Source: Spizellomyces punctatus DAOM BR117
Taxonomy: Eukaryota
Reading direction: 5' to 3' (one strand)
Assembly (NCBI GenBank): GCA_000182565.2
Contig: KQ257474.1
DNA: 8,523 nt
Part shown: positions 1-8,523 of the stretch, one piece after another
How the letters are laid out: the number at the start of each line of letters is the position of its first letter
Numbering within the stretch: position 1 is the stretch's first letter
Notes under the pieces: generated by a model
Database searches by the model: none
Seen by the model: the letters and a program-made list of their open reading frames with translations, nothing else
Told to the model about the DNA's origin: nothing
Made by a program: the position numbers and the translations under genes

Positions 1-2529
1 CCGTCCGTAAATGTAAATCGGCTTGTCTTGTGCTCCTAACCACGTAGCAGCATCACTAGCATACCCTAAAAAACCAGAACCATCCAGACCCAGCCAAGAC
101 GATTTTGTACCGTCAAAACTATTTGAAATAAAGACAGACGAGCCTCCTGCTACAGAGGCGGTCGTTTGAACTCTGCTTCCTGTAATGACTTTCCCTGAGA
201 TATTGCCGCCAAATGTAACATTATTTGAAGTTAGATTAGTTATCTGGCTTCCGACCCAAGGTTTGATAACATCATTGTCATAATCTCTTAACATCGAGAG
301 ATTGATTGCTTGCTGAGGGTATTCGTATTTGATGCCTCGATAACATGAAGGCGTATCAAACAAGAGACGAGTACAACCTCCTATTGGATCAGAAGCAATT
401 GCGACATTGCTCCCGGGTTCAAGTGGTGGCATGAAGGTAACAGGGTCTATTGGTTCGTAAACGGGGTTTCCATCGCCATCGAGTATAGGTTGTCCTTCCG
501 CATCTCGTTGAACCTTACGTTTGCGTGACCCTCCGAAAATCATTCCCCAAGGGAACGTTGAGACGATTGGGAGGATGGAGTTTACAGCCATAGGGACTGT
601 CAGTGGTGGAGATACGATCGCAGGAAATGGAATGGTAGTCAGCGGTGTAGCCCCAGACAATACGACCACATTCCCACCAGGAACATCAGTTTTCAACACT
701 TCGCCCGTGTCACTTTGCTCCGTATTGTCTGTATCCCTTTGCTTCGATAACGGCGTGGGGTCAATCAAGGTGAAGTTAAACAATGGGTATGAGCCAGTAA
801 TTATCAAATTTGGCGAATTAGATACCAACTGAGGAGGAATCATATTATACTGAATCGTATTCCCTACAACTACGACACTTCCATACGAATTTGTCGAGCC
901 AATGTAGTTGCCTTTCAGCGTATCACCCACTCGAAGAACGGTATCACTTCCTGTAAGTGAACATGAAATCAAGTCGCCGCTGACTTGTACACCATTTATA
1001 CCTCGGAGATTAGTAGATAGAATGGCACCGTTCTTCTGGAGGCCTATCCCGGCTGCTATATTAGAACTTAGAACACCATTATTGAGGGTTAAATCTGGAG
1101 ACTGGGCTGTTAACGAGAGTCTAAAATCGTTGCCCACCCGTGTTACTCCTTGGGAGGCTGTGAAGGTATCCCGTATGGTACCCCTGTTGACCATAGCCAA
1201 ACCGCTGTTAGCATCAACTTTTAGATCGAGTTGAAGGTCATTCTGTACTCTCTCGAGACCATTGCTGCAAGTCAGTACGTCTTTAATGGTATCTGCTTTG
1301 ACCATTTGAAGAAAACTGCCAGCCTCACACTTAAGGGAAAGTTGAATATCGTTTGTAGTCCCTGGGCGAACGGTCACTCCATTAAAATCTTGAAAAATGT
1401 AGCCACCGGTTAAACGGTTCCCAAGAATCCGTACTGTTTGGTTGTCAACGAGAACGCCTATCTCCCTACGTCCTACCGATTCGGGTCCAACGGCGACCGC
1501 GCCTGTTAATGATCCTTGATAAAAGTTTGAAAGATAGTCTTTTGTGACTGCATAACTTCCTCCACCTATTCCAGGCAGCGTTCCCATTATTTTCACATTA
1601 GGAACACGCAGTTCTTGCAATGTTGTCGAAAAGGTAAGATTTGAGGAGGCAGAGTATCCATACTGAAGATTTCCAAATAACACCTGCTCATAACCTGGGG
1701 ATTTCAGCGACAATCTAGAACCCACTTGAGAAAAAGTGGAACTGTCTACCATCAATCTAATCGCTGTCGTGTCAACCTCTCCCAAAAAATCAGTCATATC
1801 GGTCAAACTATTGAATCCAAAGTCTAGCCATGATGATCCGATGTCTAACAGCGTATCAGCACCGCTGGATGTCTTTATTGCGCCGAATGCTTTGAACAGT
1901 TGACTAGTATTGGTTTCTAATTCGTCTTCATTGTTCACCTTTAGACTTTTGTGGAGTTTGATTCCAAGGCCGCTCTGGTCACGAAACAATGGTTTCTTGA
2001 GCGTTTCTGGAGGAGGGAAGTTTACAGATAGACCATTCTCATTAATGGATAATGTCTCATCTGCCTGTAAACCAACCGTCCGTGATTCGGCATCCCTGTA
2101 GAGTGGAAATTCATAACTGTCCGGAATGACTTTTAGTTTTTCTTCCTCTACAGTTAAACATGAATCATCAATCTGAAGTTGAATACCATGATCCTCTTTT
2201 GAGTAGACAAGAGGTGGACGCGCGTTTACGTCGACTGTGGTCAACTGATTACTCTCGTCAATCTCAAGTCTCTTGTTGTCGTAAAGTAATTCGATACTTA
2301 CAACGCCGTTTTCGTTACTGGAAGATAAGCATCCAGAGGTGGTTTCAACAGAGTTGACTTCTAACTCGCCATTTTCGTTTGATAAATGTTTAAATTCTCC
2401 AACAGCGAACCCCTTTATCTTTGCAGCATCATCGAATCCAGTCATCTCCCCCGTAACATACGGTGAGAGGAGATTTGTATTATCTAAATTACGTAACCCG
2501 GAAGCGTTCCTACTGTTAATACCAGACAT
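1..2529 (-). CDS. Large virion fiber/spike-like protein, C-terminus beyond the window edge (at least 843 aa)
   Basis: Manual translation: ATG at 2529 (in-frame TAG upstream at 2541-2539), with no stop down to position 1. Begins MSGINSRNASGLRNLDNT and ends ...WLGAQDKPIYIYGR. Contains beta-spiral-like repeats (RPPLVYSKEDHGIQLQIDD, EFPLYRDAESRTVGLQADE, KPLFRDQSGLGIKLHK; ASQGVTRVGNDFRL, AGIGLQKNGAILST, GINGVQVSGDLISC). The ORF is near certain; the function is inferred. Confidence 0.75.
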   Translation of the reverse strand, partial: MSGINSRNASGLRNLDNTNLLSPYVTGEMTGFDDAAKIKGFAVGEFKHLSNENGELEVNSVETTSGCLSSSNENGVVSIELLYDNKRLEIDESNQLTTVDVNARPPLVYSKEDHGIQLQIDDSCLTVEEEKLKVIPDSYEFPLYRDAESRTVGLQADETLSINENGLSVNFPPPETLKKPLFRDQSGLGIKLHKSLKVNNEDELETNTSQLFKAFGAIKTSSGADTLLDIGSSWLDFGFNSLTDMTDFLGEVDTTAIRLMVDSSTFSQVGSRLSLKSPGYEQVLFGNLQYGYSASSNLTFSTTLQELRVPNVKIMGTLPGIGGGSYAVTKDYLSNFYQGSLTGAVAVGPESVGRREIGVLVDNQTVRILGNRLTGGYIFQDFNGVTVRPGTTNDIQLSLKCEAGSFLQMVKADTIKDVLTCSNGLERVQNDLQLDLKVDANSGLAMVNRGTIRDTFTASQGVTRVGNDFRLSLTAQSPDLTLNNGVLSSNIAAGIGLQKNGAILSTNLRGINGVQVSGDLISCSLTGSDTVLRVGDTLKGNYIGSTNSYGSVVVVGNTIQYNMIPPQLVSNSPNLIITGSYPLFNFTLIDPTPLSKQRDTDNTEQSDTGEVLKTDVPGGNVVVLSGATPLTTIPFPAIVSPPLTVPMAVNSILPIVSTFPWGMIFGGSRKRKVQRDAEGQPILDGDGNPVYEPIDPVTFMPPLEPGSNVAIASDPIGGCTRLLFDTPSCYRGIKYEYPQQAINLSMLRDYDNDVIKPWVGSQITNLTSNNVTFGGNISGKVITGSRVQTTASVAGGSSVFISNSFDGTKSSWLGLDGSGFLGYASDAATWLGAQDKPIYIYGR

Positions 2530-2647
2530 ATTTACATTCTAGTTAGCAAGATAAATTCCTAAAATTTGAGGAGCTTGGCAAAGACTAAGCGCTCGACGGA
2601 GGTGCCGAGCCACCGCGTGGCGTCTCACATCTCTGTGTTACATCATA

Positions 2648-4132
2648 TTACATCATTCGTTGTTTCTTCTTAGGAGGAAGGATTATTTCTTCACCTTTTC
2701 TTCTTCTCGTCCTAACGGTCGGTTCTGTCACTTGAACTTGTTGTACCGGTTGAGCAGGGACAACAAACTCGGCATCTCTCCACCCACCACGAAGTTTCGC
2801 GAGCGGACGAATCTCACTACCAAGGTCTGCTGTCAAGGGAACCAGTGTAGGTGGGTTAAGTGCCGTCGGTGCTGCTGGAGCAACATCCACTTTTCTCCTT
2901 CGATTAGCACGCACATTCCTTTCAACTTCTGCAGGGGACATTAATGTGATTTCCTCAACATGGTCTTCTTGTTCAGGTATGGAATCATCAATCTTCCGTC
3001 TCTTAACTGTTTGCTTCTCTTCAGGTTGCTTGTACTGTCTTCGCTTGGTGCCATGAGGAGCACTTCCGGCGAAAATCACATCTGGGGGACGTGGAGGAGC
3101 AACAGGTGGTGGGGTTGCTGGTGGAGTTACTGGCTCTACAACATCATGCTCCGCTCCTCCTGTTTTTTGCTTCTTTTTATTCAATCGAGGAATCGGCGGG
3201 GGTGCATTTGCTTTCCTTTTAGAACCTGCTAATATGGTTGCTTCCTTACCTTTGAAGTGAAATGGTGTTCTCGCAGGTACCGAGACAAACTGATCATTGA
3301 TGGAGTTTCTCTCTAAAACATCCGCTACACCAGATGGATCATGGCGGTCATTCAGAAGTACTGTATCATGTGGAATTGGTACGCTACGAGGCATTGTTTC
3401 GACGGAGGCATCAATTTGAGGAGATTCCACATGTATCTGTTGAGTCGACCCAGGAAATCCTCCTGGAATAGGTGGAATGTAACTATCAGCCATTAGATGC
3501 GCTGGCAGTGAAACTGCAATGCCAGTCGCATGATTGACACGGTCATTTCCAACTGCATCTCTTCGTATCTCTGTTTCTCGAGTCAGGATGACTGGCTCTA
3601 CAGGAACACTGTTTACATTACGTGGTTGAGCTGGTATCTCATTTCCATTAGGTGGTGCTTGAAACATTAAACCTGTTTGGGAAGTCACTGATGCTGGATA
3701 GGAATACACATGTCCAGTTTCATCAGGAATCGGTAATCCTGAAAGGGAATTTTGCGTTCCAATGGTCAATGCATTCCCTTGTCGACTTGGAGTAATCGAA
3801 TCAAGATACTTCTGTTTCTTATGATAATCTTCTTCTGCTTTCACGTACTCAAGACCATCCTTATAAGCCTTCGTGGTGTATTGCGCTGCTGACAATTTCA
3901 AAACATCAGAAGATGATAATCTTGGTTCATATTTAGGTTCAACGTAATTGGTCTTTGTCGCTAAGTCTTTTTGATGGATCAACCTGTTCCACGAATACAC
4001 TACTTGTGGTCGCCCGAGGTCATCGACCTTTGAATAATCTAGAGCGACCCCAACTTGTCTCTTTTGCAAATTAGGAATCGGTGGCGAAATAGCATATGTA
4101 TCACTCAAGTAATTGGCTCGGTAATATGCCAT
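2648..4132 (-). CDS. 494-aa Pro-rich, largely disordered protein with multiple NLS-like motifs (candidate core/cement protein)
   Basis: Long ORF. C-terminal half has KRKANAPPPIPRLNKKKQK, KRRQYKQPEEKQTVKRRK, RRRKV and RRRKGEEIILPPKKKQR, plus a PPATPPPVAPPRPP tract. No family recognised. Confidence 0.75.
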   Translation of the reverse strand: MAYYRANYLSDTYAISPPIPNLQKRQVGVALDYSKVDDLGRPQVVYSWNRLIHQKDLATKTNYVEPKYEPRLSSSDVLKLSAAQYTTKAYKDGLEYVKAEEDYHKKQKYLDSITPSRQGNALTIGTQNSLSGLPIPDETGHVYSYPASVTSQTGLMFQAPPNGNEIPAQPRNVNSVPVEPVILTRETEIRRDAVGNDRVNHATGIAVSLPAHLMADSYIPPIPGGFPGSTQQIHVESPQIDASVETMPRSVPIPHDTVLLNDRHDPSGVADVLERNSINDQFVSVPARTPFHFKGKEATILAGSKRKANAPPPIPRLNKKKQKTGGAEHDVVEPVTPPATPPPVAPPRPPDVIFAGSAPHGTKRRQYKQPEEKQTVKRRKIDDSIPEQEDHVEEITLMSPAEVERNVRANRRRKVDVAPAAPTALNPPTLVPLTADLGSEIRPLAKLRGGWRDAEFVVPAQPVQQVQVTEPTVRTRRRKGEEIILPPKKKQRMM

Positions 4133-4197
4133 ACTAGGTTTTTTCCTTTGCTATGTAGAGCTGAAAAAATAATATCTCTTCTGTTCTATAAATCAAG

Positions 4198-4497
4198 ATG
4201 CCTAATTGGTTTTCTAAAGCGAAAGCAAAGGCGAATGTGCTGTGGAATAACGCGCCGTCATATGTTGCAAAAGCAAGGAACTTTGCTAATCAAGCAGTCC
4301 GGCATGCCACTACATTGAATAAACATGTGCAGCACGTAAATCGCCAAGTACAAGAGTCACCGCTTTTCTCAGCAGGAGTCCGAGAGAAAAGTCAAAAGAT
4401 TTCTAGTCATGGTGAGACCGGTTTGAAGAAGTTAAGCGAACTCCACAAGAATGCAGATGACTTTGTCGAGAAGGTGACAGGTGGTAGAATCGAGTGA
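4198..4497 (+). CDS. 99-aa basic helical protein with an N-terminal amphipathic segment
   Basis: Fills the gap between a divergent spacer and a convergent hairpin; preceded by TATAAATCAAG-ATG; sequence MPNWFSKAKAKANVLWNNAPSYVAKARNFANQAV is helical and amphipathic-looking. Confidence 0.65.
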   Translation: MPNWFSKAKAKANVLWNNAPSYVAKARNFANQAVRHATTLNKHVQHVNRQVQESPLFSAGVREKSQKISSHGETGLKKLSELHKNADDFVEKVTGGRIE

Positions 4498-4530
4498 TCT
4501 AATCCAGTGAACTACTGCTATCTGGGTGGC

Positions 4531-4599
4531 GAGGGTAATTGACCCCGATCTCGGGTTCTATGTATAACATGTTACTGAACTTCGGGGTCATTTACCCTC
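4531..4599. terminator. Long inverted repeat/hairpin between convergent genes (candidate bidirectional 3'-end signal)
   Basis: Arms GAGGGTAATTGACCCCGA (4531-4548) and TCGGGGTCATTTACCCTC (4582-4599) are 17/18 complementary; inner GTTC/GAAC pair and the palindrome TAACATGTTA (4565-4574). Terminator role is inferred from position only. Confidence 0.55.
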
Positions 4600-4732
4600 A
4601 ACCTACATGCAACCCCATAATCAAACAGGTAGTGTGTGGCTGTCTAAGGGAAGCTTGAAGAGAGAAGAGCGCACACGGCGGACAATGTTCACTGCGCGCT
4701 TGGCGCCCCAGGCGGATATCAATTTTAACCCT

Positions 4733-5986
4733 TCAAACCACAGTCACAACAGCACCAATGGAAAGTGTGACATTCTCGTGGTAGGTTGAGACCATGCGCA
4801 CCTTTTGCGTAGGTGCCGTTGCATGAGTTGTATGCACACGAAGAATGCCATCAGTACCTGTAAAACTCAAAGCATTCGCCGAGCCTTCATCCTTCGAAGC
4901 AAAACTCCACCCAAAGGAAAAGGCTTTTGAATCATAGTCGGCGAACGACAGATCTATCTCCCCCAGTTGGTCAAAGGTGTTATTTGATAACTGTGTGACC
5001 AGTAACGTTTGATTGTCACTTGGGCTGTGAGTAAACCCTTGCGTTCCACTTGGAATGGTAAGATTTGCCCCCAGTTGAATTCGCCACTCGCGAAGCCCTT
5101 GTGAAGAATACATTAGCGCCTTATCTTTCGTCTGGTCATTGAGAACATCATCGTCCACAAATGACATTTCGATCCCTTGAAGTGACCTTACACCACTCAT
5201 ATGAAGCAAAAATGTATTCCGGTTTCCGCCACTACATGCGTTTTCCGTTTGGGTTGAGCGCACATAGTCATAGAATATTGACTTACCATCTGATATAGCG
5301 CGAGTCGCGTTCACAACGGTTGTCGGTGGCGGTGTGATGAAAGGCAAGAGACATCTAATGGAACTGACTCTGATTTCGCCAATACCAGCACTTGTAAAGA
5401 CGGTGGAAGGATCCGCTAAAGTGATGATGATCTCTAAGGCCTGATTAGGAAGCGCCCAAACAGGGAAGAACTGGTCATTTGTCGGATGAAAGAAACCCAC
5501 AAAAGGGTGATGGTTGATGGAGATAGTACTCGATGTTGCAAAGATATTGGTGTTTCCATATCCGGAAAGTTGGCTCAACAATTTCTTACTACCGGCGGAT
5601 AGATTGCGGTACGTTTGTACTAGATAAAGAGGATAGTTTGGAATGTTGACAACTGTTTCACCCCCTGCTTTGATGGTCAATGATTGAATAATGGATTCCA
5701 AGCCAAGATACGTGTTTTTAACACCTGTACCAGGAGTTATCAAGTTTCCTGCATTATCGTATGCAGAAACATCCATGGAGAGAATTAGTTTTTGCAGAAC
5801 GAAACTCACCGAATTAGAGTCACAAGTTATCTTAATTGGGGTCAGGTTACGACTTTTTGTCGTATACGTGCTTTGACCTATTGGAGAATAGATTGACATC
5901 CCCTCCCCGCGGGGGTCTGAGTACGAACGACTAAACGTGTTACTGGAAAATAACCAATTACGAGGTACAGCAACTTCTTCCGACAT
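4733..5986 (-). CDS. Putative double-jelly-roll major capsid protein (PLV-type), 417 aa
   Basis: Size and beta-rich pattern fit; segment GLESIIQSLTIKAGGETVVNIPNY resembles the conserved 'sli..l.i..gg..ie.i.nY' motif of PLV MCPs; WRIQLGANLTIP resembles the 'y...ig....P' motif of the second jelly roll; lies next to penton and ATPase genes. Confidence 0.75.
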   Translation of the reverse strand: MSEEVAVPRNWLFSSNTFSRSYSDPRGEGMSIYSPIGQSTYTTKSRNLTPIKITCDSNSVSFVLQKLILSMDVSAYDNAGNLITPGTGVKNTYLGLESIIQSLTIKAGGETVVNIPNYPLYLVQTYRNLSAGSKKLLSQLSGYGNTNIFATSSTISINHHPFVGFFHPTNDQFFPVWALPNQALEIIITLADPSTVFTSAGIGEIRVSSIRCLLPFITPPPTTVVNATRAISDGKSIFYDYVRSTQTENACSGGNRNTFLLHMSGVRSLQGIEMSFVDDDVLNDQTKDKALMYSSQGLREWRIQLGANLTIPSGTQGFTHSPSDNQTLLVTQLSNNTFDQLGEIDLSFADYDSKAFSFGWSFASKDEGSANALSFTGTDGILRVHTTHATAPTQKVRMVSTYHENVTLSIGAVVTVV

Positions 5987-6027
5987 CTTTGTTTACTGAT
6001 TGCAGGAAAAAAAAAAATGGAAGATTT

Positions 6028-6558
6028 TCAGCCAAAAATACCACCATAGTTGTCCTCCTCAACATTGTCCTCCTCAAAGAACGGTGATCTAGAGTCAAAG
6101 AATGGTTCATCATCACCAAATTTCAAAATTACGCTCTTTTTTTTAGATGGACGTATTGCTGCTGGCTGCGCCTTTGCTGCTGGTTTGGATCTCTTGCTCC
6201 TAGTTGGTGTTGCCTTCTTTCCTCGCTTTGTGTTTCGTCGTTCTTCCCTCGCCAACCGCTTCTGTTCCTTCTCCTCTTCAAGGATGCGTTTGGCCTCATC
6301 GATCCTCCTTTGTTTATCCTGCTCCTTCCGTTCCTTCTCGCGTTTTGCTTGCATTAGGCGCAATTGTTCAGCCCTCGCTTTCTGCGCCTTCTCCAATGCA
6401 GCCCGTTGCTTGTCCGTCATCGGGCGTTTCACCTTTTGCTTTGGAGGCTGTTCTGGTATAATTTCTGCTTTTTGAACAGGTGCTTGTTCAGCGGGTGGTT
6501 CTACATTATCTTGTGGAACGGCACTCGATTCTTGATGATTTTGATTTTGCTCTTCCAT
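6028..6558 (-). CDS. 176-aa highly charged coiled-coil protein
   Basis: KRPMTDKQRAALEKAQKARAEQ followed by an E/K/R-rich helix, a basic KRGKK...RSKRSK tract and an acidic tail; co-oriented between penton and MCP. Confidence 0.75.
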   Translation of the reverse strand: MEEQNQNHQESSAVPQDNVEPPAEQAPVQKAEIIPEQPPKQKVKRPMTDKQRAALEKAQKARAEQLRLMQAKREKERKEQDKQRRIDEAKRILEEEKEQKRLAREERRNTKRGKKATPTRSKRSKPAAKAQPAAIRPSKKKSVILKFGDDEPFFDSRSPFFEEDNVEEDNYGGIFG

Positions 6559-6575
6559 TGTTTTCTTACTCTAAG

Positions 6576-6604
6576 AAAAAAAAAAAAAAAAAATAAAAAA
6601 AAAA
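6576..6604. repeat. A18-T-A10 homopolymer tract (T-tract on the coding minus strand)
   Basis: Directly visible; abuts the penton stop codon (6605-6607). A second A11 tract lies at 6007-6017. Confidence 0.95.
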
Positions 6605-7324
6605 TTAGACATCCGCAACATCATCTGTAAATGCAAACCGAACGGTTAACGGACTGTTGAGTGCAACTTCCAAACCGGTCATTGAGTCAATAAGATAGAA
6701 TTCGATTTTGGAGATAGTGTCATCAACAGGGAGCCATTCACCTCCATCGTTAGTCCATGTGACTACATCGCCAAAGGAATCAGGGACAACCGCAGCAATT
6801 ACGGATTGGGCGGAATCATTGAAGTCACTGAGGAAACGGCTTCCTTGGACTTGGATGTTACTCGTGACAAGCATTGGATACGACCCGGACAAATTGACAG
6901 CATTCTTCAGTGTGATAGTCTTGTAATATCCCGTTTCACTCCATCTTGACATTCCTGTTAGAAGATATGATGTCGTTCCTCTCGACGCAGCAAGAACCTT
7001 GAAGTTCTTGCTACCAGATGTGGAAAGTGTCAATCTCCTCGTAACAGAGTCGTATGTGGCATTGTAGGCTTGCGTCCCGGCTGAACTCAATGCTTGAGCA
7101 ACGGCATTCGGAAAATTAGCGATGCTGTAATTACCATTAGGTATTTTCGCAGATAAGATGGTTGGATCGCCTTCTTCAACAAAATTAATCGTGTTATTAG
7201 AATCGTTGACCAGATCCCAATCTTGAAGGAAAGAAACCGAGAGAACCTTCATCATTTCCATCCTCCGAGGAGGTATTGAGAATGATCGAGATTTTAAGGA
7301 GCAGTATGTCACTTCGTTAATCAT
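6605..7324 (-). CDS. Putative minor capsid protein (penton, single jelly roll), 239 aa
   Basis: Motifs NNTINF, KIPNGNYSIANFPNAVAQAL, TYDSVTRRLTL and C-terminal ISKIEFYLIDSMTGLEVALNSPLTVRF match the pattern of Polinton/PLV/virophage pentons (ip.GnY...l; i..i...l.D..g..v.ln). Confidence 0.75.
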   Translation of the reverse strand: MINEVTYCSLKSRSFSIPPRRMEMMKVLSVSFLQDWDLVNDSNNTINFVEEGDPTILSAKIPNGNYSIANFPNAVAQALSSAGTQAYNATYDSVTRRLTLSTSGSKNFKVLAASRGTTSYLLTGMSRWSETGYYKTITLKNAVNLSGSYPMLVTSNIQVQGSRFLSDFNDSAQSVIAAVVPDSFGDVVTWTNDGGEWLPVDDTISKIEFYLIDSMTGLEVALNSPLTVRFAFTDDVADV

Positions 7325-7365
7325 GATATTTCCTTACCTTTATGTAAAGACAAAGGAAAATTTAA
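7325..7365. promoter_or_regulatory. 41-bp AT-rich divergent spacer between penton and ATPase (likely bidirectional promoter region)
   Basis: Head-to-head ATGs at 7324 (-) and 7366 (+); contains GTAAG on the minus strand, and GTAAA, CAAAGGAAAA and TAAATG on the plus strand. Confidence 0.45.
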
Positions 7366-8070
7366 ATGTCCTATAAACCACGCCCAATCTTTCCCGTAGG
7401 GAAAAAGAAGAGAGATCCTCGTGTTCCACGTGACCTGGCATCACTGCCTCTATGTACAACTCTTGTCGCTCCGAGGAAAAGTGGTAAAAGTGCATTAGTC
7501 TGCGGTCTGATTGAGGATGTCTATGCTAAATTACACGATCGAGTCATTATCATGTCCGACACAGTTGAATACGATGCTTCTGTGAAGGTACTGTCCGAAA
7601 CCACAAAACATAAAAATATCTACTTTACAGACGAGGTTTCCAATGCATCCATCGCTAAAATTGTAGAAGAACAGAAGAAAACGCCTGAGAAGTCACTTCT
7701 ATTATTCATTGACGACGCTGGTGATTCTGCGCAAAGTAAAGAACTCAACAAGGAGTTATCGAAACTCTATACAAAAGGGAGGCATTTCAATATAGGAAAT
7801 ATTGTAGCCATCCAGAGTGTAACCGGACAACTTTCACGTAAAATGAAGAACTGCACCACCGAGTGGGTGGTGTTTAAAAACAATGCAGAAGACATGAAAC
7901 TTTTAGCAAAGTTACTTGCTTCCGCCTACAAAGATGATAAAGAAGTTCTAACATTTCTCACCGAGTGCACCAAAGAACCTTATTCGTTTGCCTACATCAA
8001 TAGAGATGCTAGTGATGCTAAAGGAATGTATCGTTACTGTGACTCCAGCGGGTTTCATGATTACTTTTAG
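7366..8070 (+). CDS. A32-like (FtsK/HerA superfamily) genome-packaging ATPase, 234 aa
   Basis: Walker A APRKSGKS (7468-7491), Walker B LLLFIDD, the A32-family KGRHFNI...AIQ arginine-finger/sensor motif, and C-terminal EPYSFAYIN. Confidence 0.93.
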   Translation: MSYKPRPIFPVGKKKRDPRVPRDLASLPLCTTLVAPRKSGKSALVCGLIEDVYAKLHDRVIIMSDTVEYDASVKVLSETTKHKNIYFTDEVSNASIAKIVEEQKKTPEKSLLLFIDDAGDSAQSKELNKELSKLYTKGRHFNIGNIVAIQSVTGQLSRKMKNCTTEWVVFKNNAEDMKLLAKLLASAYKDDKEVLTFLTECTKEPYSFAYINRDASDAKGMYRYCDSSGFHDYF

Positions 8071-8175
8071 TTGCTGGCATTGGCACTCCGTACCGGGTGC
8101 TCGAAGAGCACCGTTAACGCACGTGGAGCGTGCTTTACCGGCATGTTTTTAAAGCTGATCTTATCGATAAGAGAG

Positions 8176-8523
8176 ATGGATGAAAGAAAGCCTAACTGGA
8201 AAGATATAACACCAGAGGATGAGCGGCGCTTGAAGCAGCTCTACTACAGAGAACATGCTTACATGGGCAGAGATCGTTTGTACGCGCTTTACAAAGCAAA
8301 GTATCCAGAGAGCAATATGTCTCAACGGACACTGTTATCATGGCTAAAAGACCAACCAATTTGGCAATGTTGGTCTCGACCATTGACCAACAAGGGAGGG
8401 ATTCGTCCCATATTGGCAAGTAGTCCAGGGCAACTTCAACTTGACATTTTTTCCATGATAAGTGTACCGTATTTAGGATATAAGTATGTCATAGTTGCAG
8501 TCGATATTTTAACTAAATGTGAA
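8176..8523 (+). CDS. Polinton-type retroviral-like (rve/DDE) integrase, N-terminal 116 aa, truncated by the window edge
   Basis: Manual translation: MDERKPNWKDITPEDERRLKQLYYREHAYMGRDRLYALYKAKYPESNMSQRTLLSWLKDQPIWQCWSRPLTNKGGIRPILASSPGQLQLDIFSMISVPYLGYKYVIVAVDILTKCE. Shows the Polinton integrase N-terminus (L..lYY...G..kLy...wL..Q) and the start of the rve core (QLD, first catalytic Asp; GYKYVIVAVDILTK). Confidence 0.9.
   Translation, partial: MDERKPNWKDITPEDERRLKQLYYREHAYMGRDRLYALYKAKYPESNMSQRTLLSWLKDQPIWQCWSRPLTNKGGIRPILASSPGQLQLDIFSMISVPYLGYKYVIVAVDILTKCE

Follow-up and report, generated by a model that had tools for sequence, protein, structure and literature searches.

The 8,523-base stretch of DNA analysed here (the window, taken at its full length) is tiled by eight non-overlapping, uninterrupted open reading frames (ORFs), among which we recognise the predicted virion genes of a Polinton-like virus (PLV) and the start of a putative integrase gene (Table 1). 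Twenty-four ORFs of at least 60 amino acids (aa) were listed in total; the remaining 16 are 60-141 aa long and overlie the main eight, chiefly on the opposite strand. Coding sequence takes up 7872 of the 8523 bases (92.4%), the intergenic gaps measure 41-235 bases, and the GC content is even (0.40-0.48). A first-pass annotation of the same DNA had described eight packed, uninterrupted ORFs with a fibre and an integrase ORF running off the window. This layout was confirmed, with one truncated frame at each end. The longest frame is open for 843 codons, and the chance of that many sense codons in a row is ~(61/64)^843, or ~3e-18, assuming equal codon use. The products of five of the eight ORFs have independent homology or fold support. 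Neither a tRNA nor an Rfam family was found in the window, and Pfam recognised no polymerase and no protease family among the eight products; genes for both could sit beyond the window. The inverted repeats that the window does contain are short and lie scattered.

Table 1 Genes and other features of the window, with the evidence for each.
Feature	Position	Strand	Evidence and remarks
Fibre ORF	1-2529	-	843 codons, start present, 3' end beyond window position 1
494-aa ORF	2648-4132	-	ORF list
99-aa ORF	4198-4497	+	ORF list, copy differences
Hairpin	4531-4599	no strand	Inverted repeat I7 and RNA fold
Major capsid protein (predicted), 417 aa	4733-5986	-	Predicted fold, homologues
176-aa ORF	6028-6558	-	ORF list, composition
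Penton (predicted), 239 aa	6605-7324	-	Predicted fold, homologues
A32/FtsK-type packaging ATPase (predicted), 234 aa	7366-8070	+	Pfam, PHROGs
rve integrase N-terminus (putative), 116 codons	8176-8523	+	Relatives; ORF open from 8071, in-frame ATGs at 8143 and 8176

The 417-aa protein has no Pfam match and no meaningful PDB sequence match, and we turned to its predicted structure. The AlphaFold2 model, computed with 16 homologues as input, is a double jelly roll (pLDDT 81.6, pTM 0.82). Foldseek returned 259 matches in the PDB at E <= 0.001, led by Vp54 of PBCV-1 (E 2.3e-17, TM score 0.63) and followed by the capsid proteins of an iridovirus, Sputnik, PRD1 (P3) and mavirus (mavirus E 7e-12). The same model gave 194 matches at E <= 0.001 in BFVD, mainly to giant-virus capsid proteins. 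The first-pass annotation had staked its interpretation on a double jelly roll in this protein; the model has that fold and thus passes this check. Judged by the model, the 417-aa product is the predicted major capsid protein.

The corresponding check on the 239-aa protein revealed a penton fold. Its model (pLDDT 80.3) consists of a single jelly roll with an insertion domain, and Foldseek matched it to the pentons of Sputnik (E 2.0e-07) and mavirus (E 3.3e-07) and to the adenovirus penton base (E 5e-04). Structural alignment with VIA-align gave the highest score to a vertex-capsid chain of PBCV-1 (Z 14.9), followed by mavirus (10.7), Sputnik (10.4) and adenovirus (8.3-10.0), and the first 30 rows were all chains from such capsid entries. 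Based on this modelled fold, we assign the 239-aa product as the penton (vertex) protein.

The 234-aa protein matches the Pox_A32 family over residues 37-197 (PF04665; E 8.7e-08; score 32.4 bits, cut-off 22.8) and PHROG 2666, terminase large subunit (E 8.5e-09). Its translation shows a Walker A-like motif (PRKSGKS) and a Walker B-like motif (LLLFIDD), and a PDB sequence search with it returned nothing meaningful. The family matches identify it as a predicted genome-packaging ATPase of the A32/FtsK type. A double jelly-roll capsid protein, a penton and an A32-type ATPase encoded together define a PLV in the broad sense, and here the three predicted genes lie within 3.4 kb (4733-8070).

Residues 99-134 of the product of the 843-codon ORF match the N-terminal family of the avian adenovirus fibre (PF06536; E 2.8e-05; score 24.3 bits, cut-off 22.7). 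Shaft repeats of the P-L-x..G-x-L type are present at residues 105-118 and 179-192, and the composition is rich in G, S, T, N and L. BLAST of the protein against itself found no internal repeats at E <= 1. A PDB sequence search gave nothing meaningful: a phage capsid decoration protein matched weakly (E 0.014). The Atlas scores were below 0.9 and serve as leads only. The family match and the shaft motif support the assignment of this ORF as a vertex fibre gene, with the C-terminal (distal) part of the protein encoded beyond the window.

The last ORF yields only a fragment, which alone has no Pfam or PDB match, and a word-index search found no longer relatives among 250 candidates. An exhaustive search of 1.84 billion representative proteins returned 243 matches at E <= 0.001 (31 at E <= 1e-10), mostly proteins of ~400 aa that align at their N-termini. 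We scanned 20 of the full-length top matches. All 20 carry the rve domain at E <= 0.001, with 13 above the Pfam cut-off, and 13 of the 20 have a C-terminal chromodomain. The fragment stops ~30 residues into the rve core domain. It is 48% identical to the N-terminus of the integrase on a metagenomic locus described below (L001), which continues into the rve core (E 4e-07). The relatives support reading the fragment as the N-terminal part of a retroviral-type (rve, DDE) integrase whose remainder would be encoded beyond the window. The rve integrase that marks Polintons/Mavericks in the strict sense is thus represented through relatives of the fragment. All the gene identities given in the first-pass annotation (double jelly-roll capsid, penton, A32 ATPase, rve integrase and fibre) were upheld by fold, family or relatives.

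We profiled the relatives of the capsid and penton proteins to place the element. There are 26 capsid homologues, including the window's own protein on a contig of 151,846 bases, and all are from chytrids or lack a source name. A source name is given for 18 of them: 17 come from chytrid genomes (Powellomyces hirtus and Phlyctochytrium arcticum, six each; Spizellomyces punctatus and Gaertneriomyces, two each; and S. 'palustris', one) and the other is the 'hexon' of Powellomyces chytrid fungus MELD virus 5. The best match is SPPG_02195 of S. punctatus, annotated as 'uncharacterized protein' (92% identity). The MELD virus 5 'hexon' is 68% identical over 99% of the query (E 5e-188). The 21 penton homologues have the same spread, with Geranomyces and Thoreauomyces in addition, and the window's penton shares 68% identity with its counterpart ('penton') in MELD virus 5 and 58% with the one in MELD virus 2. 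According to the NCBI taxonomy, Thoreauomyces belongs to Spizellomycetales and P. arcticum to Chytridiales, and MELD viruses 5 and 2 are filed as unclassified dsDNA (double-stranded DNA) viruses.

Maximum-likelihood analysis of 24 capsid sequences, with three short rows left out (P0002, the window's own shorter model, P0023 and P0024), grouped the window in a clade with three Spizellomyces proteins, two of S. punctatus and one of S. 'palustris' (support 100/100). A chytrid-only set of 22 rows contains both the window capsid and the MELD virus 5 'hexon'. The S. punctatus genes closest to the window are SPPG_02195, SPPG_05090 and SPPG_07591. Searches outside the fungal genomes yielded little. 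No relative was found among the IMG/VR viral contigs with the single capsid protein, and of 103 pattern matches obtained there with a capsid alignment (A3) none was confirmed; the window had no match in phage records. A metagenome scan confirmed one locus out of 212 pattern matches. On this locus (L001, 1530 bases), the last part of a capsid gene (51% identity) is succeeded on the same strand by two small ORFs and, after them, an integrase gene. In the window, the capsid gene and the integrase are separated by the 176-aa, penton and ATPase genes, and the differing order shows that gene order is not fixed in the lineage.

On protein similarity, we assign the element to the lineage named after Powellomyces MELD virus 5, in a Spizellomyces-like chytrid. 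The eukaryotic host proposed in the first-pass annotation was borne out. Its suggestion of an undescribed lineage was not, given the 68% identity to the capsid and penton of MELD virus 5 and the 92% identity to SPPG_02195. That chytrid viruses pair a PLV capsid with a fibre like that of adenoviruses is already in print, in a study that recovered six MELD virus genomes from one set of Powellomyces reads (Starrett 2021, PMC8502044). A full-text literature search found no further publications on such small viruses in chytrids, and no experimental work on chytrid PLVs was found in the literature search.

The large contig that carries the window's capsid protein, together with relatives on fungal scaffolds of 0.3-1.9 Mb, supports the genome-integrated setting claimed earlier. 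We interpret the window as very probably about the structural half of an integrated Polinton-like ('MELD') dsDNA provirus of a Spizellomyces-like chytrid. The identified genes are intact as far as the window reaches.

The state of this copy was assessed by mapping the reads of four runs on the window. Two are DNA runs from chromatin immunoprecipitation (ChIP) with the same species label (X16 and X17), and both cover 30 of 30 bins at >=95% identity (1418 and 6681 reads, respectively). The ChIP-run reads differ from the window at 232 variable places. Among the 40 best-supported of these, 35 lie in one of the eight ORFs, 27 of them synonymous, against an expected synonymous share of 23% for random changes or 34% for transitions (binomial p 2e-07). 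This excess indicates that the copies diverged under selection on their proteins, as in a replicating virus, and not by decay after insertion. The observed/expected CpG ratio of the window is 0.88, so there is no sign of methylation-driven decay. These results, like the eight open ORFs, argue against a young but dead endogenous viral element, which would owe its intact genes to recent insertion and would neither form virions nor move. Such an element would explain the near absence of RNA (5 reads in the RNA run), although a latent provirus would equally be silent in one RNA sample. It would also fit the many chytrid relatives that are predicted as shortened or fused proteins (e.g., 244-347 or 599-724 aa, compared with 417), a pattern that may reflect decay or gene-model errors. 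Overall, we consider a dead element rather unlikely.

Several observations nevertheless weigh against an intact, active provirus. Of 26.4 million records read from the RNA run (~6% of it), 5 mapped to the window, which gives no sign of expression. The module was essentially silent in that sample, whose strain may lack this exact copy. The synonymous count draws on the best 40 of the 232 variable places. No family was detected for three of the eight products (494, 176 and 99 aa), whose proposed roles are drawn from composition. The window also stops within both end genes, and a terminal repeat, target-site duplication, host junction, replicase and protease are not in it. The first-pass description of the virus as recently active is accordingly borne out in part: the intact ORFs, the CpG ratio and the synonymous excess agree with it, and the RNA reads do not.

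Reads cover the window unevenly, with the least depth over parts of the fibre and 494-aa genes, and four of the six listed loose ends of run X17 fall in the fibre gene. Because of this low depth and these loose ends, the fibre and 494-aa genes appear to differ most between copies. Some Logan contigs of a further run (X1) equal the window without difference, and X1 may be the source of the assembly rather than independent support. One Logan contig of X1 joins position 765 to 1207, so that the fibre gene loses 441 bases in frame (147 codons). This junction, whose shorter side spans only 27 letters and gives weak support, may come from a copy whose fibre shaft is shorter.

Run X17 has 4.7 times as many mapped reads as the other ChIP run, X16 (6681 against 1418), at similar amounts read. 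Enrichment of the element would be expected in one of the two if its antibody recognises a silencing mark. In run X17, a C/G of the window is replaced by T/A at 116 places and an A/T by G/C at 64. This skew indicates that the other copies lean to AT, as methylated, silenced copies would.

Mavirus and Sputnik resemble the element in penton fold (mavirus E 3.3e-07) and capsid fold (mavirus E 7e-12), and mavirus integrates by means of an rve integrase. The element could by analogy be virophage-like: integrated in the fungus and multiplying only upon infection by a giant virus (Mycodnaviridae), as mavirus does with CroV. The folds are, however, common to the whole virus kingdom and for this reason are not specific pointers to virophages. 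No sequence similarity to mavirus or Sputnik was detected, with 7-13% identity in the structural alignments, and we know of no virophage with a long fibre gene. Suitable partners do exist, as persistent giant viruses of zoosporic fungi have been reported and some of their contigs carry polinton-like integrases (PMC13533422), but the main text of that report does not mention Spizellomyces or Powellomyces. Upstream of the window's genes we found no giant-virus-type promoter motif; the candidate TTTTCCT was not above chance. A virophage-like element, even with an rve-type integrase as in mavirus, seems to us improbable.

That the DNA is part of a free viral genome or of a giant-virus contig assembled along with the fungus, as could be the case for the Powellomyces hirtus and S. 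'palustris' relatives on 6-25 kb contigs and for the six genomes assembled from one Powellomyces read set (Starrett 2021, PMC8502044), is very hard to square with a contig of 151,846 bases, far larger than 6-25 kb, with relatives inside 0.3-1.9 Mb fungal scaffolds and with the presence of an integrase gene.

We compared the provirus with described systems, of which the Powellomyces MELD viruses 5 and 2 are the most similar in protein sequence (capsid 68% for virus 5; penton 68% and 58%) and also have a chytrid host. An adenovirus-like vertex fibre is described for all six Powellomyces viruses (PMC8502044), and the window has one through its PF06536 match. The window element differs in belonging to the Spizellomyces clade and in lying on a large contig, whereas theirs are free genomes assembled from reads. 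Their replicases vary (PolB, S1H and others; PMC8502044), and that of the window element would lie beyond the window. Viruses of this kind have midsize linear dsDNA genomes of 10-50 kb with terminal repeats, of which the 8.5-kb window, cut within a gene at either end, would be a portion.

A second comparison concerns the host genus. One integrated PLV of S. punctatus has been reported as the 'SP' group, likewise with a newly recognised capsid gene (Bellas & Sommaruga 2021, PMC7805220). The supplement of that paper names SPPG_00926 and SPPG_00927 and does not list SPPG_02195, SPPG_05090 or SPPG_07591, which sets the 'SP' group apart from the window by gene names. Judged by these names, the window probably belongs to a second chytrid lineage, distinct from the 'SP' group. 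A preprint by the same authors (Bellas & Sommaruga 2026) places chytrid A32 ATPases at two separate positions among 'Aquintoviruses' and the MELD viruses within the PLV umbrella.

Polintons/Mavericks and adintoviruses share with the element a double jelly-roll capsid protein, a penton, an A32 ATPase and, in relatives of the fragment, an rve integrase with a chromodomain; a chromodomain has been noted in adintovirus integrases (PMC8502044). Unlike them, the window contains neither a protein-primed PolB nor a protease of the adenain type, and sequence relatives of its capsid protein come from the chytrid set alone (26 matches, all chytrid or unnamed). Terminal inverted repeats and a 5-6 bp target-site duplication, further marks of Polintons in the strict sense, would lie beyond the window. 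Virion proteins of the adintovirus type are described as restricted to animals (Starrett 2021, PMC8502044). The likeness to Adenoviridae lies in the fibre shaft motif and in the insertion domain of the penton, which aligns to the adenovirus penton base (Z 8.3-10.0). The compact 417-aa capsid protein is instead nearest to the PBCV-1 Vp54/PRD1 P3 type, with no adenovirus hexon among the Foldseek matches listed. Adenoviridae are recognised by a hexon with tower domains, a PolB with terminal protein and the lack of an integrase, and they do not integrate, whereas the window element bears a putative integrase and is very probably integrated.

From these assignments we propose how the predicted provirus would work. 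The capsid protein, as trimers, and the penton, as pentamers, would form an icosahedral shell, and the fibre, carried on the vertices, would bind the host cell, probably the wall-less zoospore. The contact between fibre and penton is a prediction. The ATPase would pump the linear genome into the shell, and the charged 176-aa protein and the 494-aa protein with its basic clusters may accompany the DNA, with the latter aiding transport to the nucleus. The integrase would then insert the genome in host DNA, probably guided by a C-terminal chromodomain as in the relatives. Once integrated, the genome would stay mostly silent until induced. At its boldest, this model would describe an infectious, capsid-forming, fibre-bearing dsDNA virus of true fungi that persists as a chromodomain-targeted, silent but inducible provirus, or else a virophage-like agent that protects the chytrid against the giant viruses lately reported from zoosporic fungi. 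We put this forward as a speculative and unlikely scenario. If true, it would provide a tractable pair of a small DNA virus and its host in Spizellomyces punctatus, a species that is culturable and genetically transformable.

To our knowledge, small capsid-bearing DNA viruses are almost unknown in fungi. Chytrid PLVs are known only from sequence mining, and their genes are still 'hypothetical' in fungal annotations. By its protein similarities, the window represents a new copy within an already known chytrid virus lineage. It adds little as a discovery, because both the lineage and the gene combination are already in print. It is a good candidate for studying particles, fibre-borne entry into chytrids and interaction with giant viruses, because the virion module is intact and shows signs of purifying selection and because the host species is culturable and has RNA and ChIP data sets.

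The three products without a family lie among or next to the virion genes. The 494-aa protein has an isoelectric point (pI) of 9.4, contains 11.5% proline and has no match in Pfam, PHROGs or Atlas. Its C-terminal 190 residues contain eight basic clusters of the KRK, KKK or RRRK type, which resemble nuclear-localisation signals. Three of the four copy differences shown in its gene are synonymous. From its composition and its position between virion genes, it may be an internal virion or genome-delivery protein. The 176-aa protein is highly charged (K+R 24%, D+E 19%), with only sub-threshold Pfam rows and no PHROGs match; on the same two grounds, we suggest a DNA-condensing core protein. The 99-aa protein is basic (pI 10.1) and has no Pfam or PHROGs match. 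Both copy differences shown in its frame are synonymous, and for this reason there is weak support for the ORF as a real gene.

Among the noncoding features, inverted repeat I7 lies between the convergent 99-aa and capsid genes and has 18-nt arms that are 94% complementary. The RNA fold of positions 4520-4610 has an energy of -41.8 kcal/mol (z -6.4), and none of 200 shuffles was as stable. This hairpin possibly signals the 3' ends of both convergent transcripts.

Upstream of the genes, TTTTCCT was tried as a promoter motif and rejected: it occurs 5 times against 2.19 expected, and 13 of 200 shuffles reach 5. No shared motif beyond chance was found upstream of the window's genes. On the minus strand, two T runs of 11 and ~28 bases (in 5987-6027 and 6559-6604) end ~18 bases upstream of the ATGs of the capsid gene and the 176-aa gene. 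The sequences that follow the two runs are alike (repeat D4, 79% identity), and the T run together with D4 may be a putative late promoter element shared by the two genes.

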